Shown here one piece after another: positions 2,988 through 34,895 of a DNA stretch of 64,000 bases. The position numbers and the translations under genes were made by a program. Origin of the DNA: a virus; the IMG/VR virus record IMGVR_UViG_3300008111_000005, positions 1 through 64,000 of that record; one strand, 5' to 3'. The notes under the pieces were generated by a model. That model saw nothing but the letters and a program-made list of their open reading frames with translations. It was not told the origin of the DNA and did not search any database. Each line of letters starts with the position of its first letter. Within the stretch, counting starts at the first letter, position 1.

Positions 2988-3120
2988 GTATTTTTTAAAT
3001 ACGTTCGACCGATGATAAAACTGCCCGAAGAAACCCCGAACCCCGAATCATCATAATCCGACGTTTTATCACGCGGGGCCGGCGCAATTGTAACGGAATT
3101 GTAACGGACAGTATAGGGGC

Positions 3121-3150
3121 TTGTGTTCCCATAATATAGGGGTATATTAC
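3121..3150 (+). promoter_or_regulatory. Promoter class TTGTGT-N16-TATATTAC (copy 2)
   Basis: Leader nearly identical to copy 1 (TATTACAGTATACCCAAAACGGAGAA); TTGTAACGGA tandem repeat upstream. Confidence 0.65.
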
Positions 3151-3178
3151 AGTATACCCAAAACGGAGAACAAAAACG

Positions 3179-3475: not shown

Positions 3476-3476
3476 T

Positions 3477-3692
3477 ATGACAATGCATCCTAGCATTACC
3501 CTTGACACTATCCTCGCCGCGGTGCAGGATGATTATATCGGCATCTGCATCCGTTGTGGGCAGGAGCAGGAAGGCGTGGAGCCCGACGCCCGAAAGTATG
3601 AGTGCGACAGCTGTGGGGCCAACGCCGTCTATGGGGCGGAGGAACTGCTAATGGCTACCGGCGCTATCCAGTCTGTCGTGGGGGCTCGCTAA
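3477..3692 (+). CDS. Small zinc-ribbon protein
   Basis: CIRC...EPDARKYECDSCG...VYGAEE; GGAGG RBS. Confidence 0.7.
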   Translation: MTMHPSITLDTILAAVQDDYIGICIRCGQEQEGVEPDARKYECDSCGANAVYGAEELLMATGAIQSVVGAR

Positions 3693-3901
3693 TGTTGAAG
3701 CGTCAGCGGACAGTACGTAAGGGCTGTGTCTACCGGTGGGCAGGGTTCTCACCGTATAACCCTAAAATCAAAAAGGATGCCCTGCTTCGCGTGGTGAACA
3801 TTCCCGGCGGGAGCAAGGGTGGCGTCTATCGTAACGTAGAGGATATGCAGGGCAATATTCATTTCGTCCATATCGGCAACCTGAAGCCCCGAAACGCCTA
3901 A
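3692..3901 (+). CDS. Small basic hypothetical protein
   Basis: TAATG overlap with the upstream gene. Confidence 0.55.
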   Translation: MLKRQRTVRKGCVYRWAGFSPYNPKIKKDALLRVVNIPGGSKGGVYRNVEDMQGNIHFVHIGNLKPRNA

Positions 3902-3907
3902 TATAAG

Positions 3908-3943
3908 AAAACCCCACATGAATTTGTGGGGTTTTTTCTTTTT
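3908..3943. terminator. Bidirectional terminator at the +/- convergence point
   Basis: AAAACCCCACA-6 nt-TGTGGGGTTTT followed by T tract. Confidence 0.8.
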
Positions 3944-4006
3944 CTAAAAAATGATAAAACACGGGCACACCTTGCCCTAATATTATATTATATAATAAAA
4001 AACTAC

Positions 4007-16508: not shown

Positions 16509-17174
16509 TTAGTGTGTAAAATTAGTAATCAATGGAAATAATTTACCAATGGCTTCGGCACATGCTATAGCAATTTCCCGATGTTCTTTCTGCGTTGCTT
16601 CATCACTTCTGATATCAATATAATGAATCCAACTACGAATCGTTCCATTCACATACATACGTGACATTGTAAGTCCTTCCGGAAGAACGGCACGTGCCAC
16701 TTCCTTGGCGATACCTTTATCCAACGCCCATACATAGGCGTCCAACGCTGCATCCCATGCTTCAAGCTGCTTTCGTTGCCACTGTGATTGTAGTGAAGAA
16801 TCCGTGGTTACTATACTTGCCTGACGATTCTTAACGTCTTGTAAACGTGCTTCCCGTAGACATGGTTTCATATCCAATGATTCTACCGAAGCGTATCGTT
16901 GACTGAATTCTTGAAACGTGAAACTACGATGCCTGAGAATCTGTCGGGCAATGTCACGGGTTGTTTCAATTTCAAGTGTAAGATTGGCCATCTCAAATGG
17001 TGACCAATGTTTATGTTTAATCAGATAACTAATAAGTTTATCTGTTGTGTCGGTATTTGTTTGGTTGCTCGGATTACTTACACGAGCACAAAATGCTATT
17101 AAATCAGTAAGGTCACTGTCTGGACCTAACTCTTCGACACACGGAGTTGTGTACGAAACCAATTTGACTTTCAT
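16509..17174 (-). CDS. thyX: FAD-dependent thymidylate synthase
   Basis: HWSPFE, RHRSFTFQEFSQRY signature, AKEVARAVLP. Confidence 0.97.
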   Translation of the reverse strand: MKVKLVSYTTPCVEELGPDSDLTDLIAFCARVSNPSNQTNTDTTDKLISYLIKHKHWSPFEMANLTLEIETTRDIARQILRHRSFTFQEFSQRYASVESLDMKPCLREARLQDVKNRQASIVTTDSSLQSQWQRKQLEAWDAALDAYVWALDKGIAKEVARAVLPEGLTMSRMYVNGTIRSWIHYIDIRSDEATQKEHREIAIACAEAIGKLFPLITNFTH

Positions 17175-19489: not shown

Positions 19490-19876
19490 TTATTTTGCCC
19501 ACTTACCACGCTTGACCAACTGACAGATAACCCCGTAAACCGATAGGTCTTGAAAGGTGTCGTCTATCGCCTCTCCTACATTGTCCTTCTTACCTAATAC
19601 GACCAACTGCTTCAACCGTTGAATCTTATCATTCATACGAAACCACAAACCAGTTAACGACAACTGAACATCATCAGGTGTTGATAACGAAGTCCCAACA
19701 GAAATATTACTTGGTCCATAGTTGGACTGTTTGACACAAAACGTTTCGTATTGCTCCATCATAATATTCCAGTATTCTTTGGTCATCTCTGGATATTCTC
19801 GTTCAATCTGTGCAACTATATCGGGTTTTTTATACACTGTTAAGTTGCCTGTAATACGATGTGACTCAATTTGCAT
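19490..19876 (-). CDS. DUF1599 (nucleotide-modification-associated) protein
   Basis: KQSNYG..NIS, RMNDKIQRL, DTFQDLSVYG. Confidence 0.75.
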   Translation of the reverse strand: MQIESHRITGNLTVYKKPDIVAQIEREYPEMTKEYWNIMMEQYETFCVKQSNYGPSNISVGTSLSTPDDVQLSLTGLWFRMNDKIQRLKQLVVLGKKDNVGEAIDDTFQDLSVYGVICQLVKRGKWAK

Positions 19877-20666
19877 GTAACCCTCTTATAGTAGACGAAT
19901 CCCCGTTTGGGAATTTTGTATTGTTAAGACCATTGTGTGGAGGAACACCCCACTTATAGTAATATTGTTGCATTGCGAATTGTTCTCTTTCTCTGAACTT
20001 CTGTGCTTCCGAATTCTTCTTTGTTGATACAGAACCAAAATGATACGAATGTAAGAAATGTGTACGTGATCTGGTAAGACCAGGTATCAATTCTAACTTT
20101 GCGAAGAAATCCCAATCACAAAGATTTGGAGAATTGTAAAAGGTGTCAAATCCACCAACTGCCATATACCATTTCTTGTTTATCAAGAATGGAAATATAT
20201 TTCCATCTGGTGTTTTCTTATTGGTAGACAATCTCCGTTCTTCATCAATGAACTTTTCCATATCAAATGTTTCAACCGTTTGTCCACAATCCATTACCGG
20301 AAAGTTAAACATTCCAGGACCAGTAGGTTCTATTTGATTGACTGTTAAGATTTCATTTGGGTCGTACTGCGACTCCAATTTCTTATCCCAATTTGGTGCG
20401 AACACATTATCATCGTTGATGATGAATATCTTTTCGTTGTTTGCATTCCACACACCCATGTTTAATGCGTGTTGCATCCCTTTATTTTCGGGAAGAGTGA
20501 TAACGTCAATACCTTTGTGTTTGTTTATTACGTATTCACTTTCTTCTGCATATCCATCCAAGATAACAATTATTTCGTTACCATTATGTTGTCCCCGTAA
20601 CAATGAATGTAAACACAAATCCAAATATTTTGGATTACGATACGAGGGAATAATAACCGAAATCAT
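19866..20666 (-). CDS. Glycosyltransferase family 2
   Basis: ISVIIPSY, IIVILDG, INDD, VGGFD, DWDF. Confidence 0.9.
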   Translation of the reverse strand: MISVIIPSYRNPKYLDLCLHSLLRGQHNGNEIIVILDGYAEESEYVINKHKGIDVITLPENKGMQHALNMGVWNANNEKIFIINDDNVFAPNWDKKLESQYDPNEILTVNQIEPTGPGMFNFPVMDCGQTVETFDMEKFIDEERRLSTNKKTPDGNIFPFLINKKWYMAVGGFDTFYNSPNLCDWDFFAKLELIPGLTRSRTHFLHSYHFGSVSTKKNSEAQKFREREQFAMQQYYYKWGVPPHNGLNNTKFPNGDSSTIRGLHAN

Positions 20667-20667
20667 A

Positions 20668-21711
20668 TTAGTTTTTAAGTTTAGCTGTCTTGGCTTCCTG
20701 CACTAGTACATCGGTTTTCCAGAAGGGATAAATACCTTTTTCTACTTCATACTTACTCCACACTTGTCGTGGACGTTCTGGTTGTACTCGTGCCCATTCC
20801 CACATCTTCTTCAATCCTTCATATAAGTCTGTCTTGTGTTCGAATCCAAGAACATCAACCGATTTCTGCCAAGTAGGATATGCATATTTCACTTCGTGTC
20901 GTGGGGGAAGATGTTTGATTTCACCACCACCCATCACATCAATCAATGTGTCTGCTGCTTCGTTGATACTATATTCCTTGATACCACCCAAGTTAATAAT
21001 TTGCTTGGATGCCTTCGGGTCGGTTCCTGCTCTCCACAAAGGTTCAAGAGAATCATCAATACAGCTAAATGCACGAACCTGATTACCATCACCGAAGATA
21101 GTTAATGGTTGATTGGTTAGCTTCTTATACATCCAGATACCTAACACATTACGATAGCTGTCCCAAATATTCTGGTTCGCACCGAATACGTTGTGTGGTC
21201 GGATAATACACCAATCTAATCCATGCTGGACACCGGCGGTTTCAATATCCATTTCACACGCTGCCTTCGCAATACCATACGAATCAATAGGTGCACGTGC
21301 CATATCTTCGTGGAATGGTGGTTCACCAGCACCAAATCCATACACACCCATCGAAGAAGTGAATACCAATCTCTTTACACTGTGCTTAATACACTGGTTG
21401 ATAACTCCCGCAGTTGCGAGAAGATTATTGGTGTAATTATACTGTCTGATGAATGGGGACAACGCTTCCGCTGCGTATGCTGCAAAGTGATACACGATAT
21501 CAATTTGATGTGCATCGAAAACATATCCACAGTTCTGCGTGCCCAAATCAATATTATAAAACTTTACCTTTGGATTAATATTTTCTTTATACCCACCACT
21601 AAAATCGTCAATACCAATAACGTCTACATCGGGTTGGTTTTCGATAATCCAATCAGCCAATCGTGATCCTAGAAGTCCAGCAACACCAGTGATTAATACA
21701 GTTTGTTTCAT
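20668..21711 (-). CDS. NAD-dependent sugar epimerase/dehydratase (extended SDR)
   Basis: ITGVAGLLG, TSS, YGIAK, RPHNVFG. Confidence 0.92.
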   Translation of the reverse strand: MKQTVLITGVAGLLGSRLADWIIENQPDVDVIGIDDFSGGYKENINPKVKFYNIDLGTQNCGYVFDAHQIDIVYHFAAYAAEALSPFIRQYNYTNNLLATAGVINQCIKHSVKRLVFTSSMGVYGFGAGEPPFHEDMARAPIDSYGIAKAACEMDIETAGVQHGLDWCIIRPHNVFGANQNIWDSYRNVLGIWMYKKLTNQPLTIFGDGNQVRAFSCIDDSLEPLWRAGTDPKASKQIINLGGIKEYSINEAADTLIDVMGGGEIKHLPPRHEVKYAYPTWQKSVDVLGFEHKTDLYEGLKKMWEWARVQPERPRQVWSKYEVEKGIYPFWKTDVLVQEAKTAKLKN

Positions 21712-21741
21712 TGTAAAGTAATTGTTAAAGGTTCATTAATA

Positions 21742-21770
21742 AGTATAACATCGTGACTGCTCTACGTCAA
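21742..21770 (-). promoter_or_regulatory. sigma70-type promoter
   Basis: TTGACG-17-TATACT. Confidence 0.7.
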
Positions 21771-21773
21771 GTA

Positions 21774-22520
21774 TCAAATATCTTCCCACGAGTCAATTGA
21801 AAGACCAACCGTGGGTGCTTCATATCCTTTTAAACAATGTGTTGCTAATGACGGTAGTGGTTGTACTAATGCACGACCTTTTTCACGAAGTTTAAGAAAG
21901 ATTGCAAAATCTTTTGTATTAATTAAATCTTCCGTTCCCCACATCCATACATCCATATCGTTCTTTATGGTACCAACAGTTGTTGCGAACGTATTGGTTG
22001 TAGAATTTGTTATCATCCAAAAATGGTCCTTCGTCTTAATAACTTGCGTAGGTTCCGATACATTTTCCATAGGAGTATACGGATTCCCACCACGAGAGGG
22101 ATCCCAAAACTTATCAGGATGTAAGTATCCAGTTGCGTAGTGTGCATAATTCAATGCCTCAATAATTTTATGTTCGGAACCAGGAAGATATAAATAATCA
22201 TCTTCTTGAAACAAAACAATTTCTTCATCATTTGTAATCTTTTGCACTTCGTCTAACAATACTCGCATAGACTTAGCATCGGACCCAGCCTGTATCTTGA
22301 CGAGATTAACTCGTTCCGTTGCATCCGATAATTCATTTAACCATTTCCACGTTTCATCGGTGATGGAATCCACGAATATCGTAATCTCCGCCGTGGGGAA
22401 ACAATTCAATGTATTCAACAAACACCGTTGTTTAGTGGCGTTTGGTAACTTCACCTGCCACGTTCGTTGTTGTGCATGTTGTGAATTACTGGACTCACTT
22501 ATTCTGTAAAATATTTTCAT
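21774..22520 (-). CDS. Putative GT-A glycosyltransferase
   Basis: LFQEDDYLY, STTNTFA, PSLATH motifs. Confidence 0.7.
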   Translation of the reverse strand: MKIFYRISESSNSQHAQQRTWQVKLPNATKQRCLLNTLNCFPTAEITIFVDSITDETWKWLNELSDATERVNLVKIQAGSDAKSMRVLLDEVQKITNDEEIVLFQEDDYLYLPGSEHKIIEALNYAHYATGYLHPDKFWDPSRGGNPYTPMENVSEPTQVIKTKDHFWMITNSTTNTFATTVGTIKNDMDVWMWGTEDLINTKDFAIFLKLREKGRALVQPLPSLATHCLKGYEAPTVGLSIDSWEDI

Positions 22521-23409
22521 TATAAAACCGTTCTAATTCTTTTGGAAAGTGTTGTGTTGCAATTTGTCTAAACTCATCTTTACGATCAATACTGGACACT
22601 AAATCATTTAGGTATTTGTTGTTTTGTTGATGATTCTCACAAACTAATATACCGTCCAATACATACTGCTGCACAGGAAGTTTTTTGGATTCTCGTAACA
22701 CTTGTGCACAAGTTAATACATAGGTATCTTCCAATCCGTAGTGACCGAATGATTCGGGTATTCCTGTTACTTTCAACAGTTTATTACTGATAACGGTTCC
22801 CCACCCACCAGCAGCTTTAAATGTATTGATTGGTCGAACCGCAACCCCAGTATCTCGTAATCCCAGATCAAATACATTTGCTGTTAGATTATCATTTAAT
22901 TCTCTGGACAATAAATCGTCATGTACCAACACATCCCACGTAGTGTCCCACTGTCGTGTTATCTGTGGAGTTACTACATAGTAATCCACTCCACTATTTT
23001 TTATGGCTTTTACTGCATTACCAAGGTATCCAAGAAATCTGTCACCGAAGAATAAATCATTGTCCATCCACAAAGTAAAATCGTAATCATCTACATATTT
23101 TAATGTATGTCGTCGTTGCGAAACACAGCCAAGTATTTCTGATTTGTATTCTATTCTAAATGTACTATCTGATGATTCCCAGGTACATAACGAACTTACT
23201 ATATCAGAGAATTTATTAGCAAAATAAACTTGTGGTAGTTTTGAAGTTGACCAATCAATCATTTCATCACTTAAACATAATGTGATATCAAATGTGTATT
23301 CCACATCCTCTGGTATCCATTCCGCGTTACGACGAAGATTATATAAAGTTAGATGTAAATTATCAATTTCGTGTGGTAATACAAAAATAGAAATTAAACC
23401 TTTGGTCAT
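22495..23409 (-). CDS. Putative GT-A glycosyltransferase
   Basis: WMDNDL DxD motif, GHYGLEDT. Confidence 0.6.
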   Translation of the reverse strand: MTKGLISIFVLPHEIDNLHLTLYNLRRNAEWIPEDVEYTFDITLCLSDEMIDWSTSKLPQVYFANKFSDIVSSLCTWESSDSTFRIEYKSEILGCVSQRRHTLKYVDDYDFTLWMDNDLFFGDRFLGYLGNAVKAIKNSGVDYYVVTPQITRQWDTTWDVLVHDDLLSRELNDNLTANVFDLGLRDTGVAVRPINTFKAAGGWGTVISNKLLKVTGIPESFGHYGLEDTYVLTCAQVLRESKKLPVQQYVLDGILVCENHQQNNKYLNDLVSSIDRKDEFRQIATQHFPKELERFYNENILQNK

Positions 23410-24065
23410 ACCTTTATTCTCTGAACCACACCCACTCCCCAATCAGCTTCTCCACGACCAAACCATTCAACTGAGAAAATATCTGTGTCAATTGCATCTA
23501 ACAATGCCACTGGACCTGGGTGGTAGTTTGTATCGTGGAATGCCATCACTCCGTTTGGAATCATCTTTTCCCAATACTTCCATTCTTTGATTACTTGATT
23601 GACAGAATGCCATCCATCCACGAACATAAAGTCAATTTGTTCATGACCGTACCATTCCATCAATTGATACAAGCTTTCATAGTTGGCGGAATCACCTTGA
23701 ATTGTAAATATATTATTTTCTATACTATTCAAATATGTTTTGGGTTTAAGATCCATTCCAACATACATGCAGTCTGTTGGTTTGATACTGAGTAATGTGT
23801 TCGTGGAGGAAACACCACCACATTCATCTACACCAATTTCAACTATTAATTTAGGTTGGTGGGGTAATTTATTAAATGCATATTTTAATGCTTCGTGATT
23901 AAGTGACGAAAAATGTACATTGGGTGAAGCATCAAAGTCACCTAACCAATCGGTATCATTGGAAATGCTAGGTTCCAGAGAGGGAAGATATTTTAGTCCA
24001 TAAATATCTGTGGGTAACTTGGTTACCTTTGATAAAATATCATTCGTTCTGTCAAGTAAATTCAT
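23406..24065 (-). CDS. Class I SAM-dependent methyltransferase
   Basis: IVEIGV, IDFMFVDGWHS, GVMAFHD. Confidence 0.85.
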   Translation of the reverse strand: MNLLDRTNDILSKVTKLPTDIYGLKYLPSLEPSISNDTDWLGDFDASPNVHFSSLNHEALKYAFNKLPHQPKLIVEIGVDECGGVSSTNTLLSIKPTDCMYVGMDLKPKTYLNSIENNIFTIQGDSANYESLYQLMEWYGHEQIDFMFVDGWHSVNQVIKEWKYWEKMIPNGVMAFHDTNYHPGPVALLDAIDTDIFSVEWFGRGEADWGVGVVQRIKV

Positions 24066-24074
24066 AGTATTCTC

Positions 24075-25304
24075 TTAGAAAATTCTGTATTGTAAATCAG
24101 CGTTGACTGCTTTGTATCCCCACTTTTTAACAGCTGCGTCATATTCTGCTCCGTGGTTACCATCAATTGCTTGACGCATTGCCAATCCACCGGCGAGTGT
24201 ACCCATTGGATGTCCATGCATTGCACCACCAACATTTGCCATCCAGTTATGACTATCAAGTAATCCGTTAATGTGCTGCACCAATCCAGGATGCATTCCA
24301 CAACTGAGTGCGGGGATAACATTGTAGTTCCACAACACCTTCAAGGCGTCTTGTAGTTCTGTGTCATCCTGATTCATATACCCACCAATCATACCTGCGT
24401 GGATAGAGTCTGCACCAGACCACCCTGCAATCTTACAGATAACGGGCCAGTAGATATGATTCGGAGCACGACGGTCAGTGAAGAATTTATCCCCAGACTT
24501 CTGAAAGTGAATCCACAGATTAGGATTCTGTTTACGGATTGCACGATATGCACCCAACCCACTCCACACATTAATATGAACACCCAATCCACCTTCATCC
24601 GAAACGAATTGTGCTCGTTGTAGTGCGTACGGACTGTCACCATTAATACAGAATGTGTACATTACATTCGGGGCGTTATTCGCCAACCAGTTGGTGATAA
24701 GTGGAACTCTCTTTGTCAACGGACAATGTGCCGGACTACCAAGGAGTTCATCTTCTTTAATAAAGTTTACACCACCATATACCATTTCCTTCACGGCTTC
24801 TAACAATACTTCTGGACTCATTCCAACCTTGGGTTTGATAATACCACCGAAGAATGGTTTGCCCTCGACACCATTAAACTTACGGAATCCATCAATACCA
24901 TATGCTGGTTTCAATGTAAACTGTTGTTCAATATGTGCAGGTAGTGTTACGTCCAATACATGACATTGCTCAATTTCCAGAATGTCTACTTGACCACCGG
25001 CGATGTGGCAGAGGATTTGTGAGATACCATCTTCTTCTAAGTCTAGATTTTCTAGTGGAAATGCGATATCAACTTCACCGGAAAACTTCGACTTTAATTC
25101 ATTTTCATCAGCGAGAACAAAACAACTGTGGTCACGAAACATCTGGTCAGTTTCCCATACACTACGATTGTTTGGATTACCGATGCTTTGACCAATTGCC
25201 AAATTCCACGCGGCATCTCGTAGTGAAGTTTTCCCTGCAAGGAAGTACTTAACTATAAAATATTTGGATAAATCAATATCTCTTGTAAAAATATTTACGC
25301 TCAT
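24075..25304 (-). CDS. RuBisCO-like protein (form IV-like, non-carboxylating)
   Basis: GGIIKPKVG, GGVNFIKEDE (carbamylation motif), IHAG, LSCGMH, NVGGAMHGHPMG; loop-6 Lys replaced (GGYM). Confidence 0.9.
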   Translation of the reverse strand: MSVNIFTRDIDLSKYFIVKYFLAGKTSLRDAAWNLAIGQSIGNPNNRSVWETDQMFRDHSCFVLADENELKSKFSGEVDIAFPLENLDLEEDGISQILCHIAGGQVDILEIEQCHVLDVTLPAHIEQQFTLKPAYGIDGFRKFNGVEGKPFFGGIIKPKVGMSPEVLLEAVKEMVYGGVNFIKEDELLGSPAHCPLTKRVPLITNWLANNAPNVMYTFCINGDSPYALQRAQFVSDEGGLGVHINVWSGLGAYRAIRKQNPNLWIHFQKSGDKFFTDRRAPNHIYWPVICKIAGWSGADSIHAGMIGGYMNQDDTELQDALKVLWNYNVIPALSCGMHPGLVQHINGLLDSHNWMANVGGAMHGHPMGTLAGGLAMRQAIDGNHGAEYDAAVKKWGYKAVNADLQYRIF

Positions 25305-25633
25305 TGTTTGTCTGTGACCTCGTATTTGTCGCCTATGACGGACGGTAATTTAACAACAATTAATTCACAATCTTCTAAAAATTCTGGGTCTGCTATTTCA
25401 TACGGAAATATAGTAAATATATCTCCTGTTGTCAATAGCTGTCCTTGTATTCGCATCTTGCCACGAATTAAATAGTTAATTTCTATAGCCCTCTTGTGAT
25501 AATGCTTACCCCAGATTTCACCTTTTTTATGACGAAGATATCCGACTTCAAAATCACTGGTCATCAATACGGATGGTGTAAAGTTTCCAATAAACCATCC
25601 ACGAGTCATATCTTCAATTCTTTTTATTTCCAT
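25301..25633 (-). CDS. Small cupin protein
   Basis: RGWFIGNF, HYH....EINY...G cupin motif. Confidence 0.75.
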   Translation of the reverse strand: MEIKRIEDMTRGWFIGNFTPSVLMTSDFEVGYLRHKKGEIWGKHYHKRAIEINYLIRGKMRIQGQLLTTGDIFTIFPYEIADPEFLEDCELIVVKLPSVIGDKYEVTDKQ

Positions 25634-26345
25634 ATAATGCTCTGTATCGTTCAATATCTTCCAAGGTTCCTACTGCATAGTGTTCGGACGGAGTTATATC
25701 GTATACTCGTTTAGTTCCGTCCAGATAGTTGTATGAGGGACCAATATAATATTCACCATTAACAGTGTCTTTCACTTGTTTCATAGTATTCACCGAAGAT
25801 GCGAAATCTTTGCCATACTTCCACCAGTGAATACCATTCAGTGAATAGTTACTAATCACTTCCTTTTCTTTTACCATTGTGAATTTTGGATATTTGTGTT
25901 CTACATTAGCCACCAACGCGTAACTATTTTTAGGCGTGTTAGTTTCGTAGGTCACCACCGCACCAATAGCATCGGTGGTTTTGGTAAACTCAATAAACTT
26001 ATCGGCGTCCCAATGCATGATTTGGTCACAGTTGGTAACTAATAAATCAGTTTCTCCAAAAAATAATTGTGGAGCATGTAACGCCGAAATGGCTGGACCA
26101 TCGGTAAGATAATCAATTTCTACTACAACAGCCTGACCAACGGTTTTACGAATCGCATCACGAAGAGCCACATTCCAATCTTGATTGTTGTATCTACGAA
26201 CAATGAAACAATAATGGCCATCTATGTTCAACGATTCCAATGCCATTTCAATCATAACTTTACCTGGTAATACTTCTACCAGTGGTTTGGGGACCGTGCT
26301 TTTTACACGAGTCCCCTCACCAGCCATTGGAATAATAATATTCAT
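25614..26345 (-). CDS. Sugar-phosphate nucleotidyltransferase-like protein (A)
   Basis: IIIPMAGEGTR, PKPLV, TDGPA, NCDQ, EK, NGEYYI. Confidence 0.85.
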   Translation of the reverse strand: MNIIIPMAGEGTRVKSTVPKPLVEVLPGKVMIEMALESLNIDGHYCFIVRRYNNQDWNVALRDAIRKTVGQAVVVEIDYLTDGPAISALHAPQLFFGETDLLVTNCDQIMHWDADKFIEFTKTTDAIGAVVTYETNTPKNSYALVANVEHKYPKFTMVKEKEVISNYSLNGIHWWKYGKDFASSVNTMKQVKDTVNGEYYIGPSYNYLDGTKRVYDITPSEHYAVGTLEDIERYRALYGNKKN

Positions 26346-26349
26346 TTAA

Positions 26350-27243
26350 TCAAGCAACTGTTGAAGTAGTAAACTGTATGTCTGCGTGCTCACCCAATGA
26401 TTCTGCCGACTTGGTACGCATGAATTCTTCATGTAGTGATTGACCCAACTGGTCCATTTGATTGAAGAACTGCTTACTCAAATCAAGATTCTTGTCAGTT
26501 ACTAATGGAGTATAATCTGCTTGTGGGAAGTCAACCACCGAGTATGTATAATTCCAGTATGAAGCAAATTCCTCCCAACGATTTTCTGCATCAATTAAAT
26601 CCCAAACACGACTACCGATTGTTGGTACGGTGTGATAGTAAATAGATCTCTTTAAGCCATCAAGTGTTCTCATACTACCAGCGATAATGTTTTGGTGACG
26701 TTGGATTTGTTGGTTTGCCAAATATTCCAAGTGTGCATCTGCATCAATTCCAACTTCTTCCATACGTCCTGGAATGATACTAGCGAAGAACACACTTTGA
26801 TAACTCAAAGACTTAATGATGGTATTTGCATCAGAAACACCTGTTACATTTAGATATAACTTACGAAGTTCTGGTGCGTCGGCGATTCGAAGTACATAAC
26901 TGAAATGTGGAATCTTCAATGCCATAGCTGCACCATTACCGTTGAACTGGTCAACATATTGTGCCCATCGAATAATATCTTCTTCTTCCATAACTGAATT
27001 AGGGACTTGTACATATACTAATCCTTCTGGACCTTCACCACGAAGTTCTCCAACAAGTGAGGTCATCTGTGGAACAAGTGTTTCAAATTTATCCAATGTA
27101 TCGCAGTTGACCTTTGCCAATGCGTTTGGATTGGTAGTAATACCAATTACGGAACTACCGTCAATATACTTACCCAACTTGTCCCAAATCTTACGGATAT
27201 AGTCGGTGTCTGCTGTGTCAAAAAAGAATGTTGGTTGTGACAT
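26350..27243 (-). CDS. Divergent transaldolase/fructose-6-phosphate aldolase family protein
   Basis: FFDTAD, GITTNP, Schiff-base LKIP, NVT, GRM, GSMR. Confidence 0.8.
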   Translation of the reverse strand: MSQPTFFFDTADTDYIRKIWDKLGKYIDGSSVIGITTNPNALAKVNCDTLDKFETLVPQMTSLVGELRGEGPEGLVYVQVPNSVMEEEDIIRWAQYVDQFNGNGAAMALKIPHFSYVLRIADAPELRKLYLNVTGVSDANTIIKSLSYQSVFFASIIPGRMEEVGIDADAHLEYLANQQIQRHQNIIAGSMRTLDGLKRSIYYHTVPTIGSRVWDLIDAENRWEEFASYWNYTYSVVDFPQADYTPLVTDKNLDLSKQFFNQMDQLGQSLHEEFMRTKSAESLGEHADIQFTTSTVA

Positions 27244-27623
27244 TATGGATTCTCCACGGTTCTTGGTCCTTTGTTTATTCTATCTTTTATTGCTAAGATT
27301 GAGGTTTCCCAATCTGTATGTCTGTGTACCGCATCATCTATTATTAAATCGGCGTGAGGTTTACTCCACCAAATTTCATCATATGGAATATCCCATTTTT
27401 CTAACCAATCAAACAATACTTTACCTTGTAACTTTAATACCCTTCCTTGATTCCCACCACCAGTTTTCATATGTCGTGCCGTATGAAGAATAATGGTGTG
27501 CCCTTCTTCTTTTAACCATCGTAACGTTTCTAATGCTTCTGGAAACGGCTTGACATCTGCGTAGGTCATATCACCAGTTTTATTTTCACAGATAGTATTA
27601 TCTATATCAAAACAAAATATCAT
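27243..27623 (-). CDS. HAD phosphatase, EcbF/BcbF capsule-biosynthesis type
   Basis: FDIDNTIC, HTARHM, WL....IPYDEI..KP, IDD. Confidence 0.85.
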   Translation of the reverse strand: MIFCFDIDNTICENKTGDMTYADVKPFPEALETLRWLKEEGHTIILHTARHMKTGGGNQGRVLKLQGKVLFDWLEKWDIPYDEIWWSKPHADLIIDDAVHRHTDWETSILAIKDRINKGPRTVENP

Positions 27624-28390
27624 AATGTACCCTCAAAGGCTTTTACATCTGCTGGTGTACCAAGAGGTACAACATCAGTAACGGTATGTACATATACTGG
27701 AATCCCTATACTCACATTATACGAGGCCACCATACTCATATAATACTCTGCGTTTCCATTAAACTCAACTGGTTTGTTAAATTCCATAATAAACTTTGCA
27801 TAGTTTGTAAAGAATTGTGTTTGACCAAAGTAGAATATACCAATCATCGTAGGATGGTGAACCCACGAATCATTCTTCTCACGAATACCCACAGCCTTTC
27901 CATCTTCAATTATAACGTTCGACCATTTATTGGGTAGTGATTTGTCTGGATTATCAAAGCATGCTACTGCGACTGCATTACTCTTAAATTTAATACCACG
28001 AATAAAATCATCAACACCATTATGATTATATTTGTTATCGGAATCAAGAACCAATAAGTCATCAGTTTTGTGCCACATACGAGATGCTGCTTGTCTTGCG
28101 GTGTCTAAACTTCCCGAAGTAATTTCTTTAAACGGAATGATTTCTATGTTACGACCGTAAATGGAATATAAAAATTTATCCAATCCAGCATCCAAATGTT
28201 CTTGCAAAACTGCAAAATATAAATGAATGTTACTCGACTGTCCCTTTCCATCGTGACGAATATATGGACATGATTCCGTTGTCCATTGTAAGATTGTCTT
28301 ACCATTTATTTGAATTAATGGTTTGGGGTCTTTGTATCCTTCGTTTACAAAACGTTGACCCCTACCAGCCATTAACACTAAGACGTTCAT
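27620..28390 (-). CDS. Sugar-phosphate nucleotidyltransferase-like protein (B)
   Basis: LMAGRGQRF, PKPLI, DSD, REK, EYYMS, LGTPAD. Confidence 0.85.
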   Translation of the reverse strand: MNVLVLMAGRGQRFVNEGYKDPKPLIQINGKTILQWTTESCPYIRHDGKGQSSNIHLYFAVLQEHLDAGLDKFLYSIYGRNIEIIPFKEITSGSLDTARQAASRMWHKTDDLLVLDSDNKYNHNGVDDFIRGIKFKSNAVAVACFDNPDKSLPNKWSNVIIEDGKAVGIREKNDSWVHHPTMIGIFYFGQTQFFTNYAKFIMEFNKPVEFNGNAEYYMSMVASYNVSIGIPVYVHTVTDVVPLGTPADVKAFEGTL

Positions 28391-29373
28391 AATTCCAATG
28401 CCTCGTTTAATAATCTTATACCTGTGAGGTACATTGCTCGTTGTCTTTCCAGACTATCATAATGACGAGCACACATCCCAATAAAGATGCAGCCTTGGAT
28501 AATTTTTATTTCCTTCTTATTAAACATTGGAAAGAAAATATATTCAAACTCATTCAATGCCCAATCAAGTTCACCGTCATTCTTAATGTCCAATTGATAC
28601 GCATTGCCATTTGCTGTAACCTTAAACTTATCAGTAATAAATGCTTCATACGTTCCATCCAATGAATGATATAGTTTAGCTATATCGTATCGAATATCAC
28701 CGTAATTTCCAAGTTTACCAAATGAACCACGAGGATCTATGAAACGAATAATATTTTTATCTTCACCATATAAAATATTACTAAAACAACAATCACCGTG
28801 TATAAGTGATGGAGTAAAAGTTAACATATTTTGTTCGATGTAATTCTTAATCTGTGGCCAGACTACTTCGAACATGGAGTATTGTTTATTGTTAATGTAT
28901 ACTGAATGTGCACGAACTTGGTCAATAAACAACGAATCAAACTTATCGTGCCACCCAGAATAAAAATTACGGTACTCACGTTCTGTTTTTGTGATGTACA
29001 TATCGTACGCTGCATTACGAATTTCTTCGTCAGTCCACTTAACTCGTGGACTGATGTTAGACCACGACACAAGAATGTTTCGTAAATTAAGGAAAAATTC
29101 AGACCACGACGGCATAATTTTGTCACCAAACAAATAATTACCAACGTTTGGATAACTATACAATTCCAAATCCATCCAAAAGTCTGCTATTAACGGTTCT
29201 ACGTGATCGAGTAATCTTGGAAAAAATACTGCTTGTGATGGATGATACTTTTGTAATTTTACATAATATAATATCTCATCACGGAGTCGTTCGGTGGAAC
29301 TTAATTTCCGAACAACTCCTCGCGTTTCATCTACTTCAAATCTATTGTATGCTCGTGTGACTAATTTTTCCAT
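28387..29373 (-). CDS. Aminoglycoside/choline-kinase-fold sugar kinase
   Basis: HGDCCFSNIL, FIDPRG, GDIRYDIAKL. Confidence 0.8.
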   Translation of the reverse strand: MEKLVTRAYNRFEVDETRGVVRKLSSTERLRDEILYYVKLQKYHPSQAVFFPRLLDHVEPLIADFWMDLELYSYPNVGNYLFGDKIMPSWSEFFLNLRNILVSWSNISPRVKWTDEEIRNAAYDMYITKTEREYRNFYSGWHDKFDSLFIDQVRAHSVYINNKQYSMFEVVWPQIKNYIEQNMLTFTPSLIHGDCCFSNILYGEDKNIIRFIDPRGSFGKLGNYGDIRYDIAKLYHSLDGTYEAFITDKFKVTANGNAYQLDIKNDGELDWALNEFEYIFFPMFNKKEIKIIQGCIFIGMCARHYDSLERQRAMYLTGIRLLNEALEL

Positions 29374-29376
29374 AAA

Positions 29377-30012
29377 TCATCCCACTTGGAATGGTGGTTC
29401 CCATCCTGTTTCGTTACAATATTCAATGACTTCATCAATAGAAATCGTATTCAATGCCCATCGTTCTGCGTAGGGAATGAGGTCTGGGACTCGTGCCATA
29501 CTACCATCATCATTCATAATCTCACAGATGATTGCAACTGGTTTCGTTCCAGCCATCATAGCAAGTTGAACAGATGCTTCGGTATGACCCTGCCGTTCCT
29601 TCAACAAACCAGGACGGGGACGGAGTGGAAACAAGTGACCTGGGTATGCAAGTTGTTCTGGTTTGGTATTTTCATCTAGTACCAATCCAATCGTGACCAT
29701 ACGATCTTCTACACTTACACCAGTAGTGACACCATCACGTGCGTCAATACTGACGGTGAATGGAGTCGAAAACTTATCGTTATTGTTAGATGGACTCATA
29801 GGAATTTCTAAACGATCTAACATAAACTTTGGTGTAGGAATACACATGATACCTCGTGCTTCCTTTGCGATAAAAGCCAGTGTTTCTGGTGTTGCTTTTT
29901 CCGCTGCAATCATCAAGTCACCTTCATTTTCTCTATCGTAACTATCTACGACGATGATTGGTTTTCCGTTGCGGATATCTTCTAATACTGTTTTAATTTT
30001 TTCTGATAACAT
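29377..30012 (-). CDS. ribB: 3,4-dihydroxy-2-butanone-4-phosphate synthase
   Basis: DRENEGD, FTVSID, TTGVS..DR, PGHLFPL, RQGHTE, ICEI; no fused GTP cyclohydrolase. Confidence 0.95.
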   Translation of the reverse strand: MLSEKIKTVLEDIRNGKPIIVVDSYDRENEGDLMIAAEKATPETLAFIAKEARGIMCIPTPKFMLDRLEIPMSPSNNNDKFSTPFTVSIDARDGVTTGVSVEDRMVTIGLVLDENTKPEQLAYPGHLFPLRPRPGLLKERQGHTEASVQLAMMAGTKPVAIICEIMNDDGSMARVPDLIPYAERWALNTISIDEVIEYCNETGWEPPFQVG

Positions 30013-30024
30013 TTACCTTTCCCC

Positions 30025-30894
30025 TTATACGATTTTACAAATGTCGAAGTCTAATGAATTTATGTCTAACCACGGATACCAATCAATCTCTTCTTCGGTT
30101 GGCCCGTTTACGAAGTTTTCAAACGTGTTTGGTGACTGTCCTCTCCACTTTCTATCATTCCAAGTCAGCTTCTCAAACTTTTGTGTTTTTGCTCCGCACT
30201 GCGGAACTACATGCTTACTTGCTCGTGTCCAGTATTTATCCAACCCTACATCATTCCACCTAAGATATGGGAATCCATCTCCATATTCAGCGTGTCCAGT
30301 TTTACAAATCGGACTAACTATTTGACCCTCTACGTTTATTTGTTCGGGCCAATTATGCCATGCGTGATAATCAACCAACGATGCTCTGTTGTGTCCTAAA
30401 TCTCTACGTAATGCTCGTGTACTGAAATCCAGTTCGTGGTTTCCGTTTGTAGCGTATCGTTCATCCCACCATCCGAAAAATCGTAATCCTTCCAATGTCA
30501 TTAAGGTAACTTGGTCACCTTGTGGGGCCATATATAAATCATAATCGGTTTGCTTGATAATGTCAACCCACCCATCCTTAATAATCATATTGTCGTGAGC
30601 AGTTATACAATATTTTTTACCGGAAAGAAAAGTGTGAACATATGCTTGATTGTAGTTTTCAACCATAGGACCGATTGCGTAATCGTGTCTCATCACATTA
30701 TTCCAAATCTTAACACGAGATTTAATATCATCTGCGAAGTCATCAATGGTGACTGATGAATGATTGGTAATGATGTTGACTCGTTCAAAGTCAAAGGTAT
30801 TTAACCACTCACGTGCAAATCCATCCATCAACTCCTTTCTTCGCCAGTTGGAAATCCAAAGTTCAACGTTATCTGGTGTAAAATCTGTTCTCAT
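30025..30894 (-). CDS. Putative GT-A glycosyltransferase
   Basis: AHDN, GWWDERY, HELDF. Confidence 0.55.
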   Translation of the reverse strand: MRTDFTPDNVELWISNWRRKELMDGFAREWLNTFDFERVNIITNHSSVTIDDFADDIKSRVKIWNNVMRHDYAIGPMVENYNQAYVHTFLSGKKYCITAHDNMIIKDGWVDIIKQTDYDLYMAPQGDQVTLMTLEGLRFFGWWDERYATNGNHELDFSTRALRRDLGHNRASLVDYHAWHNWPEQINVEGQIVSPICKTGHAEYGDGFPYLRWNDVGLDKYWTRASKHVVPQCGAKTQKFEKLTWNDRKWRGQSPNTFENFVNGPTEEEIDWYPWLDINSLDFDICKIV

Positions 30895-30895
30895 C

Positions 30896-31678
30896 CTATC
30901 CTCGCGTCAATTCTAAATGATTTATTACTGTATTGTATGGTAGTCCCATATGTTTTACGTAAAAAAATAATAATGTATGTGGATTCAAAAACCTATCTAC
31001 ACCTGGTATCTCTACGTTATTCCCTGCCGAACGTGTTGGTTTTTCTAGTTCTAGTACAGATTCCATCTCTTCTATATGATTATACAAGTTATTGTATACT
31101 TTCATATTATCAAAATTACCCACCGCATAGTAATCGTGTGGTTCTGAGTAGTGTTCCTTTGTTGAGTTATACCACGGCCAATTAATACATTCCAAATCTA
31201 TATCGTCTAAATTAAAACTGTCTTTTAATTTAATATCTGGTCTACATTTTATTACCAAGTCATAATCTGTACTGTGTGACTCTAATAACTCAAAACATTT
31301 TAATGCTTTGTACCACATAGAGTATAGATGCGTTACTCGTCGAGTTGTCCAATCTATACTGTTTTGTGATACACCTGCCTCGTTTCGTAGTTTTCTAACT
31401 CTCTTACTTTTATCTAAAAATTCTTGTAAAGGTTCTTCGTAAGGTTGTATTACTACATCGGTAAGATTATATTTTTGTTTTAACTCTGTTTCTGTATGTA
31501 TTAATTTGTCTCGGTTCTCTACAACATGTACATCATCTGATTTTTTACGATTTCCCATCACATCCCACGTATGTAAAAATACATCACAGTCGTGTTTTGA
31601 GAATAATAATTTATCCCAAGAATCGTAATTATAATCAAAATTTCTATAATGTCCAGATAAACATACTCCTATCTTCAT
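30896..31678 (-). CDS. Putative glycosyltransferase-like protein
   Basis: CLSGHYR, DVFLHTW, SMWY, YDLVIKCRPD; paralogue of next gene. Confidence 0.6.
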   Translation of the reverse strand: MKIGVCLSGHYRNFDYNYDSWDKLLFSKHDCDVFLHTWDVMGNRKKSDDVHVVENRDKLIHTETELKQKYNLTDVVIQPYEEPLQEFLDKSKRVRKLRNEAGVSQNSIDWTTRRVTHLYSMWYKALKCFELLESHSTDYDLVIKCRPDIKLKDSFNLDDIDLECINWPWYNSTKEHYSEPHDYYAVGNFDNMKVYNNLYNHIEEMESVLELEKPTRSAGNNVEIPGVDRFLNPHTLLFFYVKHMGLPYNTVINHLELTRG

Positions 31679-32445
31679 GCGTACTGCTTTTCCAATTCTT
31701 CTATATTGTTGATATTTACTACACGATGCATGATTTCGTAGTTGAACGGAGCACAGTATGCTTCAATTCCACCCATTACTCGTACACGATATCCGATATA
31801 GTTTTCACCATATGGAATCTGAATCTGTGAATGAATAAAGGAAAAGTGTGGATAGGTATCACAGAACACATCCATATTCTTTGATGTGGAGAATGCGAAT
31901 ATATCCGTCATCGTATATCCACCTTGATGAAAGTTTGGGTCATTACGAATCCCCTGAAACTTATCCGCGGTGACGATATGTGTTCGTGATTGTTCCAAAT
32001 AATCCATTACATTGATAGGATTCTCGTACCACAAATCATATCTTGCACGAATCACCAAATCATATTCAAATCCATTTAACAGTTCGTATCGCTTCTTCAA
32101 CATATTCGCTGTATAGATTGAATAGAAGATACTAGCCATACGTTCTTGATTTGCTTCTGGTGGTGATGTGAACCTACGTGCGAATGGAAATTCCTTCTGT
32201 GGTTCAAAGATATAATCTTTTGGATTAAGACTGAGTAACATCTCTTCCGTTTGTGGATGAACCAATCCTACTCTACCTTGTTGATGTGCTTGCGCACTAT
32301 CGTATGGTTGACCAATAGTATTTGGGTCAAACCATGCGTGTAAGAAGATATCCATATCTTCTATACCAACGAGGTTTGCCTTTAACATTTTTAATGACAA
32401 AGGCAATCCACGAGGTTGACCAGATAAACAAAGTGCTATTTTCAT
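31675..32445 (-). CDS. Putative glycosyltransferase-like protein
   Basis: CLSGQPR, DIFLHAW, SIFYS, YDLVIRARYD. Confidence 0.6.
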   Translation of the reverse strand: MKIALCLSGQPRGLPLSLKMLKANLVGIEDMDIFLHAWFDPNTIGQPYDSAQAHQQGRVGLVHPQTEEMLLSLNPKDYIFEPQKEFPFARRFTSPPEANQERMASIFYSIYTANMLKKRYELLNGFEYDLVIRARYDLWYENPINVMDYLEQSRTHIVTADKFQGIRNDPNFHQGGYTMTDIFAFSTSKNMDVFCDTYPHFSFIHSQIQIPYGENYIGYRVRVMGGIEAYCAPFNYEIMHRVVNINNIEELEKQYA

Positions 32446-32446
32446 A

Positions 32447-33046
32447 TTAATTAAAGAACTGTATTATAATCATCACATCATCTGCGAGTCCGTTCGGACG
32501 CATGTGTTGATCTAGTATGGTTACTGCATAGTTACGGTCGGGTATCATATATACACCACGAGTTAAATAATCAAATAGATTTGGTAAGTACATATCCTCA
32601 CAGATATAATATCCACCTGGTTTTACAAGTGCGTGGTATTTTAATATTGCTTTGACTTGGTTATCAATATCATGTGCACCATCTTCAATAAACACATCTT
32701 GCTTCGGTAAGTTCTGTACTAGATAGTTACCATTATCTTCATTGTATGCGTCACCAAATATCATATTAACATTAGGTAACGTTGAAAGATAATCCTTTCG
32801 TACAGGTTCTACAATATCAAGTCCGGTAATTATACCCTTTGTAAAATATTGCGACCACATCAACAGACTTGCACCAGATGCAATACCCAATTCCATCAAT
32901 TGAACAGGTTCGTCTTTCCATGCAGAGAATAATGCATCGTACGTATCAATATAAAAATGCTTATGTAACGGATGCCTATCTCCTTTGTCAGACAAACCAA
33001 TATCAGGAATATCTTCCATTTGGTAGTAAAATTCTTTTAGTCTCAT
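32447..33046 (-). CDS. Class I SAM-dependent (sugar O-)methyltransferase
   Basis: DKG..H, MELGIASGAS, IEDGAH, KPGGYYICED. Confidence 0.85.
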   Translation of the reverse strand: MRLKEFYYQMEDIPDIGLSDKGDRHPLHKHFYIDTYDALFSAWKDEPVQLMELGIASGASLLMWSQYFTKGIITGLDIVEPVRKDYLSTLPNVNMIFGDAYNEDNGNYLVQNLPKQDVFIEDGAHDIDNQVKAILKYHALVKPGGYYICEDMYLPNLFDYLTRGVYMIPDRNYAVTILDQHMRPNGLADDVMIIIQFFN

Positions 33047-33879
33047 ATCCAAAACCATTCACTTGGTAGAAGGTCTATAATACTGTTATGACGAAGGTTT
33101 GGTCCGAACCACTGTGACGGTGCGGTTACAATCTTCTTGGGGTTTGGATTTAACCATGCTCCCCACCAACTAAACGAACTATTTGCAATGATGTGATGGT
33201 CACACATACTCATCATACACATTTCTACATATGAGTTATTGATATCTACAATATATCCACCTTCGAACATTTCCTTACACCATTCTGGATCATCGGAGAA
33301 TACTACAAACCGATAAGGTTCTTTCGAGAAGAACTTGTTGATAGCCTCCGCATAGTATTCCATTCCAGTGACCGTATGGTTTGCAGAGTTTGCCACATAA
33401 TCTCCACGACGAACGTGGATAGATACTCGTGGTGCATCATCCTTTACCTTTGCCAGTTCTAATTCAGCTTGCTGTCGAATTTCTGGACGAAAGGTAAATA
33501 CTTCACGGACTTTTTGTTCTGCATGTTTGAAATATTTTTCACTTTGAAAGAACCCAGCAATATCAATATTATCTGGGATATCTAATGCTGCACCATTAAA
33601 ATGAAAGAATTGTTCTTGATATCGTTGCTTGACAACATCTGAAATTTCTGCCATTGGTGCAAAGTAACTGTCGGGAATAAGAAATGGTCTACGAAGTTCC
33701 ATACCAGTTGGTTCTGCTTGCTGCTTTGCCAAATCATAAAATACGAAGTTATCACCAGTATTTTCTATTGGAATTTTTACATCATATCCGTTCTTTTCTG
33801 CGATACCAATGAGTGCAGCCATTTGAAACATTTGGTTACCAAATCTCCCAGAGTTTCCTATACCGACATGCGTAATCAT
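33043..33879 (-). CDS. Glycosyltransferase family 11 (alpha-1,2-fucosyltransferase-like)
   Basis: GRFGNQMFQ, GFFQSEKYF, HVRRGDY, NSSFSWWGAWL. Confidence 0.93.
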   Translation of the reverse strand: MITHVGIGNSGRFGNQMFQMAALIGIAEKNGYDVKIPIENTGDNFVFYDLAKQQAEPTGMELRRPFLIPDSYFAPMAEISDVVKQRYQEQFFHFNGAALDIPDNIDIAGFFQSEKYFKHAEQKVREVFTFRPEIRQQAELELAKVKDDAPRVSIHVRRGDYVANSANHTVTGMEYYAEAINKFFSKEPYRFVVFSDDPEWCKEMFEGGYIVDINNSYVEMCMMSMCDHHIIANSSFSWWGAWLNPNPKKIVTAPSQWFGPNLRHNSIIDLLPSEWFWI

Positions 33880-34895
33880 ATAGAGGTAACCTGTTCGTTA
33901 ATCCAGTGATATGTTTTGGTAATGCCGTCAACCAATGGAGAATTTGGCTCCCAATTGAGGTGTTGACGAATTAACCGATTGTCAGAGGAACGTCCACGAA
34001 CCCCTAACGGACCTGGAATATGATTAATAGTTAACTTCTTACCAGCGATTCCCATAATCATATAAGCAAAATCGTTAATTGAAATCATTTCTTCCGAACC
34101 GATATTAACAGGACCAGTAAAATCTGAATGGGTTAACCGTAAGATGCCTTCGACACATTCATCTACATAAAGGAATGAACGGGTTTGCTTTCCGTCACCA
34201 AACATATCAATTGAACCACCTTCTGGTGTCTGCGCAATCTTTCTGCACATCGCAGCGGGTGCCTTTTCACGCCCACCTTCCCATGTCCCTTCTACACCAT
34301 ATACATTATGGAAACGAGCAATGCGTGGTTCTATGCCGAAGTTACGCTTGTACGACATATACAATCGTTCACTGAATAATTTTTCCCACCCATATTCACT
34401 ATCTGGGTTTGCTGGATATGCTGAACTTTCTTCACAGTTTGGATTATCTGGGTCTAACTGGTTATGCTCTGGATAGATACACGCCGATGACGAATAGAAT
34501 ACTCGTTTTAATCCCAACGTCACCATTGCTTTCAATGTATTTAAATTGATTAACGCCGAGTTGGTCATTACATTTGCGTCATGCTCACCAGTAAAGATGT
34601 ATGATGCTCCACCCATATCAGCAGCTAATTGATATACTTCGACATCGGTACGGCCCAAACTTAATGCGTTCAAGCATGTTTGATAATCCGATAAATCTCC
34701 GTGTACAACATCGTCTGCAAATGTGTTTACATCACAATGTTCTGGAAGTTTAATATCTGCCACACGAACCCAGTAACCTTCTTTCTGTAATCGTCGTGCG
34801 AGGTGGTGGCCTATAAAACCACAACCACCGAGTACCACAGCGACTTTATCCGCTGTGCTCAGTGGTTTTTTACTAACGTTACCTTCTTCTGTCAT
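33876..34895 (-). CDS. GDP-mannose 3,5-epimerase-like SDR
   Basis: LAADMGG, SSACIYP, DSEYGWEKL, GGREKAPAAMCRK. Confidence 0.88.
   Translation of the reverse strand: MTEEGNVSKKPLSTADKVAVVLGGCGFIGHHLARRLQKEGYWVRVADIKLPEHCDVNTFADDVVHGDLSDYQTCLNALSLGRTDVEVYQLAADMGGASYIFTGEHDANVMTNSALINLNTLKAMVTLGLKRVFYSSSACIYPEHNQLDPDNPNCEESSAYPANPDSEYGWEKLFSERLYMSYKRNFGIEPRIARFHNVYGVEGTWEGGREKAPAAMCRKIAQTPEGGSIDMFGDGKQTRSFLYVDECVEGILRLTHSDFTGPVNIGSEEMISINDFAYMIMGIAGKKLTINHIPGPLGVRGRSSDNRLIRQHLNWEPNSPLVDGITKTYHWINEQVTSI

Follow-up and report, generated by a model that had tools for sequence, protein, structure and literature searches.

The window analysed here is a stretch of 64,000 nucleotides, the first 64 kb of the 104,871-bp IMG/VR virus contig IMGVR_UViG_3300008111_000005, for which CheckV gives a completeness of about 55%. 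Between positions 24075 and 30012 it carries eight genes, among them those of a RuBisCO-like protein (RLP), an atypical transaldolase and RibB, which an initial annotation of the sequence had joined into one candidate sugar pathway. All eight open reading frames (ORFs) are intact, share one orientation on the minus strand and lie where that annotation had placed them. Comparison with related loci divides them into two cassettes, A and B, with the following predicted products in order of transcription.

29377-30012, minus strand: RibB (3,4-dihydroxy-2-butanone 4-phosphate (DHBP) synthase), stand-alone, cassette B; from PF00926 and TIGR00506
28387-29373, minus strand: APH-fold sugar-phosphate kinase, cassette B; from a near-miss to Pfam APH and homology to DLP3 gp82
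27620-28390, minus strand: nucleotidyltransferase (NTase) B, cassette B; from weak NTP_transferase, NTP_transf_3 and archaeal GlmU matches
27243-27623, minus strand: small HAD phosphatase of BcbF/AfhF type, cassette B; from TIGR01689, PDB matches and DLP3 gp81
26350-27243, minus strand: atypical transaldolase/FSA-fold Schiff-base aldolase, cassette B; from family profile, AlphaFold2 (AF2) model and Foldseek
25614-26345, minus strand: NTase A, cassette A; from PF00483 and matches of GlmU, RmlA and AglF type
25301-25633 (TTG-started ORF to 25654), minus strand: small metal-binding cupin, cassette A; from metal motif and profile
24075-25304, minus strand: RLP, non-carboxylating, cassette A; from PF00016 and PDB 3nwr

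Gaps of 3 nt (RibB and kinase) and 4 nt (aldolase and NTase A) alternate with overlaps of 4 nt (kinase and NTase B, NTase B and HAD, cupin and RLP), 1 nt (HAD and aldolase) and 20-41 nt (NTase A and cupin, the likely start of the latter being the ATG at 25633 as judged by comparison with homologues), which bears out the description of eight minus-strand genes that overlap or lie at most 4 nt apart. Dense packing, in which no gap exceeds 62 nt, extends from 19490 to 34895 and over about 21 genes, so that spacing sets no boundary around the eight; tight adjacency is the norm of this phage here and thus provides no evidence for one pathway. The family assignments of the initial annotation hold as well. 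RibB and the RLP score above their cut-offs, and the two NTases, the kinase, the cupin and the aldolase are backed by other means, the Pfam matches of NTase B, kinase, cupin and aldolase all being sub-threshold.

Gene neighbourhoods separate two cassettes

A search for RLP loci gave 119 relatives in IMG/VR, the best 80 of which were kept (51-100% identity, metagenome-assembled genomes (MAGs) of giant viruses included), and neighbours were sought by tblastn with the window proteins within 6 kb of the RLP. A homologue of NTase A was found at 77/80 of these viral loci (53/55 clusters at 90% identity) and one of the cupin at 76/80 (52/55 clusters). RibB, the kinase and the aldolase stood beside the RLP at four of the 80 loci only (L003-L006). 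These four make up two clusters, with 88% RLP identity to each other, and represent the window phage's own lineage.

The reverse approach started from the aldolase, for which a metagenome protein search returned 501 protein matches at E <= 0.001. A single-sequence query for loci gave only near-identical contigs, and an alignment-based search gave 24 viral loci. Among cellular genomes, a first scan yielded none and a second yielded a single Planctomycetota groundwater MAG with cassette B; with this MAG and Synechococcus phage S-SKS1 the set comprises 26 loci. RibB, kinase and aldolase occur together in 26/26, in the order RibB-kinase-(NTase)-HAD-aldolase; L105 gave no match for HAD and L104 gave none for NTase B. 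Homologues of NTase B with 37-55% identity lie between kinase and HAD in L089-L098. The RLP is present in 4/26, again L003-L006, and absent from 21/26, the one further locus ending at the aldolase.

Gene fusions follow the same division and were observed only within a cassette, never across. In cassette B an NTase is fused to RibB in L099 and in S-SKS1, and RibB, NTase and kinase form a single protein of 817 aa at L109, Planctomycetota MAG JACQVS010000240.1. In cassette A, single-ORF fusions of NTase and cupin occur on the giant-virus MAG contigs L065-L072 and on the further viral contig L081; they measure 346-370 aa, and 881 aa in L072.

From co-occurrence and fusions it follows that the eight genes are two cassettes, each with an NTase of its own, which were juxtaposed once in the lineage of the window; the presence of two NTases is explained in the same way. 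The co-occurrence of RLP, RibB, transaldolase and NTase, which the initial annotation had suggested as a check, was recovered within each half (26/26 for RibB, kinase and aldolase, 76-77/80 for the RLP with NTase A and cupin) and was not found for all eight genes together outside this lineage. Its proposal of one pathway with three skeleton-rearranging enzymes finds no support, as the RLP is paired with RibB, kinase and aldolase in only 4/80 loci, all of one lineage. We therefore consider it likely that two autonomous sugar-activation cassettes lie side by side in a glycan island and serve the neighbouring glycosyltransferases. The cassettes would most likely be two independent routes to undescribed nucleoside diphosphate (NDP) sugars, with products predicted from the enzymes present.

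Cassette A: RLP, cupin and NTase A

The RLP belongs to the RuBisCO large-subunit superfamily (PF00016, 115.8 bits against a cut-off of 30.1), and its best match in the PDB is the uncharacterised RLP 3nwr (E 7.5e-32). It reaches the cut-off of no NCBIfam equivalog. The scores were 94.5 against 409 (NF007095) and 71.5 against 513.6 (TIGR03332) for the MtnW enolase models, 115.5 against 700 for the OiaX decarboxylase (NF042437) and 153 against 497 for the form III model TIGR03326.

Invariant across the 80 viral RLPs are K157, K159, K183-E-D185-E186, H302, S334-C-G336 and G359-G360. Based on HMMER alignments and known RuBisCO motifs, we take K157/K159 to correspond to RuBisCO K175/K177, K183/D185/E186 to K201/D203/E204 and H302 to H327, and S334-C-G336 together with G359-G360 to form the P1 phosphate site. 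By the same reasoning, the positions of RuBisCO E60, N123 and H294-R295 are occupied by the fixed residues Q39, G104 and Q268-K269, and loop 6 reads GGY, without the K334 lysine, in all 80 sequences. The full catalytic set of the carboxylating RuBisCOs (forms I-III) is thus not present, whereas the equivalents of KPK, K-x-D-E and H327 are retained. The RLP call of the initial annotation stands, and by its residues the protein is predicted to be non-carboxylating: it retains the Mg/carbamate enolisation machinery and one phosphate site without the carboxylation residues, a pattern which fits an enzyme that enolises a phosphorylated ketose and is unable to carboxylate it. Assignment as a carboxylase or as MtnW was rejected on the basis of the residue set and of scores far under the equivalog cut-offs. 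When the RLP was compared by tblastn with 50,697 GenBank phage records, none was matched, so that the RLP cassette is so far limited to uncultured contigs.

NTase A matches NTP_transferase (PF00483) with 21.9 bits, slightly above the cut-off, and further matches GlmU, RmlA and AglF types. Its identity to NTase B is 25%. Both NTases are very divergent, with GlmU, RmlA and AglF types as best family matches, and sequence searches of the PDB gave chance-level matches only for either of them. The cupin has an HxH-x4-E metal motif, which is invariant in 12 homologues together with D88 and D102-K103, and its profile weakly matches the metal sites of quercetinase and of a mannose-6-phosphate isomerase. 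A methyltransferase is a frequent fourth member of this cassette, a homologue of it lying directly downstream of the RLP in 22/80 loci:

23406-24065, minus strand: methyltransferase; from Methyltransf_24 (E 2e-7) and RMNT_CmcI (E 5e-4)

For cassette A we infer a route of isomerisation by RLP and cupin, followed by activation by NTase A. The RLP would probably enolise or isomerise a ketose phosphate, the metal cupin would probably carry out a further isomerisation, and NTase A would then convert the product into an NDP-sugar.

Cassette B: RibB, aldolase and an Afh-like activation set

RibB matches PF00926 with E 1.2e-73 and TIGR00506 with 214.6 bits against 177.45, the latter match spanning residues 3-203 of 204, and by score it is predicted to be a bona fide DHBP synthase. 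Neither RibA nor RibH was found within the 104.9-kb contig, in agreement with the initial view of RibB as an orphan outside a riboflavin set; RibB is accordingly no vitamin gene here. A role as a riboflavin auxiliary metabolic gene (AMG) was rejected because no other riboflavin genes were found in the contig and because RibB is fused to NTases in relatives.

The aldolase scores 17.7 bits with PF00923, below the gathering score of 27, and some of its homologues exceed this cut-off, such as the L109 copy at 44.6 bits. A profile of 13 aldolase homologues matches the Thermoplasma acidophilum transaldolase (TacTal) with E 4.5e-8; in this alignment K110 corresponds to the catalytic lysine and R160 to the phosphate-binding arginine. 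The AF2 model has a pLDDT of 90, and Foldseek matches it to transaldolase (TAL) and FSA with a target-normalised TM of about 0.75. Residues D9, N38, Q79, the Schiff-base lysine K110, T134 and R160 are invariant. Gln79 takes the place of the TAL glutamate and Ile157 stands at the position of the TAL phenylalanine and the catalytic tyrosine of FSA, both being invariant in the 13 homologues. The protein thus combines the TIM-barrel fold, the Schiff-base lysine and the phosphate-binding arginine with neither of the acid/base pairs, Glu and Phe (TAL) or Gln and Tyr (FSA). The label of an atypical transaldolase fits these features, namely the retained fold, lysine and arginine and the isoleucine at the Phe/Tyr position. 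A canonical transaldolase was not found in the contig. Identification as talC was rejected, since the aldolase has neither the Glu/Phe pair of TAL nor the tyrosine of FSA and scores below the Pfam cut-off.

The other members of the cassette point to sugar activation. In phages HY126, RB69 and DLP3, a route to UDP-D-arabinofuranose makes arabinose-5-phosphate from ribulose-5-phosphate (Ru5P) by an isomerase; AfhE (NTase and kinase) and AfhF (HAD phosphatase) then take it to UDP-arabinose by way of phosphorylation at C1 and loss of the 5-phosphate. In the Acinetobacter phage DLP3 the analogues of AfhE and AfhF are gp82 and gp81 (PMC13326640). The kinase of the window matches APH-type families only (Pfam APH, E 1.3e-4, slightly below the cut-off), gave no match in a sequence search of the PDB and is 37% identical over 90 aa to the C-terminal kinase domain of DLP3 gp82 (E 4e-12), which suggests that it acts on an anomeric hydroxyl. 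The HAD protein matches TIGR01689, the EcbF-BcbF capsule phosphatase model, with E 6e-17, under the curated cut-off, and in the PDB 1xpj (E 1.8e-12) and 9iqw, a 'capsule biosynthesis protein' (E 4.9e-9); its identity to DLP3 gp81 is 33% (E 9e-14). NTase B gives weak matches to NTP_transferase, NTP_transf_3 and archaeal GlmU. The reading of kinase, phosphatase and NTase as a known sugar-activation logic is therefore sustained by the homology of kinase and HAD to the AfhE/AfhF-type enzymes of DLP3.

In the route that we propose for cassette B, RibB would convert Ru5P to the C4 ketone DHBP, the reaction for which this enzyme is known. Speculatively, the aldolase would join DHBP to a second carbonyl partner to give a phosphorylated sugar, probably C-methyl-branched or deoxy; one candidate for this equally speculative product is a ring-forming C-methyl-branched sugar that would arise through addition at the C2 ketone of DHBP. 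By analogy with the phage route from arabinose-5-phosphate to UDP-arabinose, the AfhE-like kinase would then place a phosphate on the anomeric hydroxyl, the AfhF/BcbF-like HAD would strip the terminal phosphate, and NTase B would yield the NDP-sugar.

Two members of the cassette-B set deserve separate mention. At L109 (489-9810), where the cassette sits in an rfb-like cluster, the region upstream encodes a transketolase-like protein without the N-terminal thiamine pyrophosphate-binding domain, a methyltransferase, a Zn-dependent dehydrogenase and an RmlD-like reductase. From these additional genes one might suspect that the sugar is tailored further. In S-SKS1 (L001, NC_020851 35008-39493) SWZG_00040, labelled 'phosphoheptose isomerase', shares 47% identity with the HAD of the window, the 'transaldolase' SWZG_00039 is the atypical aldolase, and the 475-aa 'DHBP synthase' SWZG_00042 matches the window NTases in part and looks like an NTase-RibB fusion comparable to that of L099. 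Judged by these similarities, the three GenBank annotations look misleading. The viral and cellular scans brought up no organism with a chemically known glycan that could be linked to cassette B.

The glycan island and the target of the sugars

The genes are flanked by a GT2, a GT11, two GT4 glycosyltransferases, two SDR epimerases and methyltransferases, and further glycosyltransferases were found as far as 38148. Glycosyltransferases and methyltransferases were identified on both sides, as the initial annotation had described, and the eight genes lie in a glycan-building island. Upstream of RibB, beyond the hypothetical genes next to it, stand two further genes of interest:

30896-31678 and 31675-32445, minus strand: pair of paralogous DUF7796-like proteins, predicted fold GT-A (GT6-like); from a weak DUF7796 match, AF2 and Foldseek

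An AF2 model of the DUF7796-like protein (pLDDT 73) gave GT6 glycosyltransferases in Foldseek with E 4e-7 and TM 0.4-0.48. Homologues of the member h256 occur within 6 kb of the RLP at 29/80 loci, and matches of the h256/h260 type at 25/26 cassette-B loci, L105 excepted. The DUF7796-like proteins, which accompany both cassettes, are with moderate confidence the best candidate transferases for the NDP-sugars, each of which would be consumed by neighbouring glycosyltransferases. The hypothetical genes at 21774-23442 and 30025-30894 have no match in Pfam or PHROGs.

At the downstream end of the island a gene with DUF1599, 'nucleotide modification associated domain 1' (19490-19876), overlaps the GT2 gene, and 2.3 kb beyond it lies ThyX (16509-17174). 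Part of the island might thus serve DNA hypermodification. With the same enzymology, one or both activated sugars could then glycosylate the phage DNA rather than a glycan, a reading which is in line with these two genes and with the homology of kinase and HAD to the enzymes through which Straboviridae obtain UDP-arabinose for the arabinosylation of DNA. We hold it to be unlikely, given the many polysaccharide-type glycosyltransferases (GT2, GT11, two GT4 and the two GT-A-like proteins), the sugar O-methyltransferase-like genes and SDR epimerases of the island and the occurrence of the same cassette in the rfb-like cluster of the Planctomycetota MAG; moreover, no hydroxy- or hydroxymethyl-pyrimidine synthase was recognised beside the island.

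The source of the contig is, by its genes, a large uncultured T4-like phage. Its PolB-type DNA polymerase (56897-59476) is nearest to that of Microcystis phage Mel-JY01 (43%), with T4-like cyanophages at 33%. The likeness to S-SKS1 was compared for the sugar cassette and its flanks only, so that the phage may be unrelated to Llyrvirus. The first 4 kb of the window (1-4000) have a GC content of about 50%, compared with 36-41% over most of the remainder, and long ORFs overlap there on both strands.

One pathway or two

Several points weigh against two autonomous cassettes with the roles outlined above. The locus flanks were sampled over at most 10 kb, so that a partner cassette farther off would escape detection, and the contig itself is about 55% complete. 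The RLP loci L007, L008 and L039 are without a recognisable NTase and cupin, the neighbours of the L007 RLP having no match in Pfam and PHROGs. In the window lineage the cassettes lie 4 nt apart and are certainly co-transcribed, and cross-feeding between them is possible. DHBP is a ketone and a poor aldol acceptor for the known TAL and FSA enzymes, which makes the aldolase step speculative. Finally, the roles of all eight proteins are predictions from sequence, and the glycan target may be the host surface, the virion or DNA.

The single pathway of the initial annotation, in which a pentose-phosphate skeleton is reshaped step by step by RibB, aldolase and RLP and the one unusual sugar that results is then NDP-activated, would account for eight contiguous, translationally coupled genes whose arrangement is kept in the four related contigs. 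Ketose phosphates derived from Ru5P would also be plausible RLP substrates in view of known RLP chemistry. It is nevertheless improbable: the full set is confined to one lineage (4/80 RLP loci, 4/26 RibB-aldolase loci), each half brings its own NTase and is fused only within itself, the dense packing reaches well past the eight genes, and the residue sets of RLP and aldolase are identical to those of the stand-alone cassettes. A narrower version, in which the cassettes became coupled in the window lineage and the RLP acts on a DHBP-derived ketose phosphate from RibB and the aldolase to give one new branched sugar, appears to us quite improbable.

That the genes are ordinary AMGs, with RibB for riboflavin, the aldolase acting like cyanophage talC and the RLP in methionine/sulfur salvage, would agree with the RibB score, which is that of a true RibB, with the annotation of the S-SKS1 homologue as 'transaldolase' and with the likeness of RLP plus cupin to the MtnW and MtnD pairing of methionine salvage. 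It is very unlikely indeed: no other riboflavin genes were found in the contig and RibB is fused to NTases in relatives, the sub-threshold aldolase has neither the TAL pair nor the FSA tyrosine, and the RLP, at 94.5 against 409 for MtnW, has an NTase as its constant partner.

Two separate cassettes are thus the reading that we prefer, and its practical upshot is that the cluster should be treated as two pathways and not as one. A literature search brought up no paper describing the function of either cassette and no characterised viral RLP, in line with the initial annotation on the latter point. To our knowledge, every RLP characterised so far serves salvage or catabolism. The novelty would lie in the predicted anabolic roles of RLP and RibB; that a virus carries an RLP is not new. 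If these roles hold, both enzymes would have undescribed anabolic jobs, a member of the RuBisCO family contributing to the synthesis of nucleotide sugars and RibB supplying its C4 building block to a sugar instead of to riboflavin. Among uncultured viruses both cassettes are frequent, and the sugars that they yield could be widespread constituents of glycans at the surface of virus or host. Such sugars could affect adsorption, immunity and automated 'AMG' annotation, which would mislabel RibB, the 'transaldolase' and the 'RuBisCO' here.

Comparison with known systems

A RuBisCO-fold protein in a virus has a precedent in about 80 phage 'form IV-like' RLP sequences reported by Jaffe, Castelle, Dupont and Banfield in 2019 (Mol Biol Evol; PMC6389311). 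The phage RLPs of that group, in which sequences of Beckwithbacteria are also placed, were highly divergent, came from many environments and lay on large myovirus-like contigs, and several catalytic residues were missing; neither gene context nor function was given for the phage sequences (PMC6389311). The RLP of the window resembles them in its properties, being phage-borne, divergent and widespread in IMG/VR. Beyond that report, it is seen here to travel with an NTase and a metal cupin and to have a fixed active-site set.

Type II PMI-GMP enzymes (AlgA/ManC) pair an isomerase with a pyrophosphorylase by combining NTase and cupin. By analogy, cassette A is like them in linking an NTase to a metal cupin, through coupling or fusion, and this link suggests a similar pairing of isomerase and activation. 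It differs from them in that there is no PF01050 match, the cupin is much smaller, the second metal motif is different and the RLP is a third partner.

The aldolase resembles T. acidophilum Tal and E. coli FSA in its TIM barrel and in keeping the Schiff-base Lys, the Asp, Asn and Thr and the phosphate-binding Arg; with FSA it shares Gln instead of the TAL Glu. In contrast to both, it has Ile157, an extra C-terminal helix (model residues 250-287) and a constant link to RibB.

The initial annotation had likened the activation steps to those of NDP-heptose. The succession of kinase, phosphatase and NTase is indeed common to both, whereas neither a SIS-type GmhA nor a PfkB/GHMP-type kinase was found; tested against the NDP-heptose set (GmhA, HldE/HddA, GmhB, HddC), the cluster has no SIS protein and its kinase is of the APH type instead of PfkB/GHMP.

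The closest parallel to cassette B is the phage route to UDP-D-arabinofuranose: both begin at Ru5P and employ an anomeric kinase, a small HAD and an NTase, and kinase and HAD are homologous to DLP3 gp82 and gp81, as expected of an AfhE/AfhF-type system. No SIS domain, and thus no candidate arabinose-5-phosphate isomerase, was found in the 104.9-kb contig. RibB and a TAL-fold aldolase are present instead of the isomerase, from which it follows that the sugar of cassette B cannot be arabinose. The NTase is separate and very divergent, and whereas the Afh genes belong to a DNA-modification cluster, cassette B lies in a glycan island.

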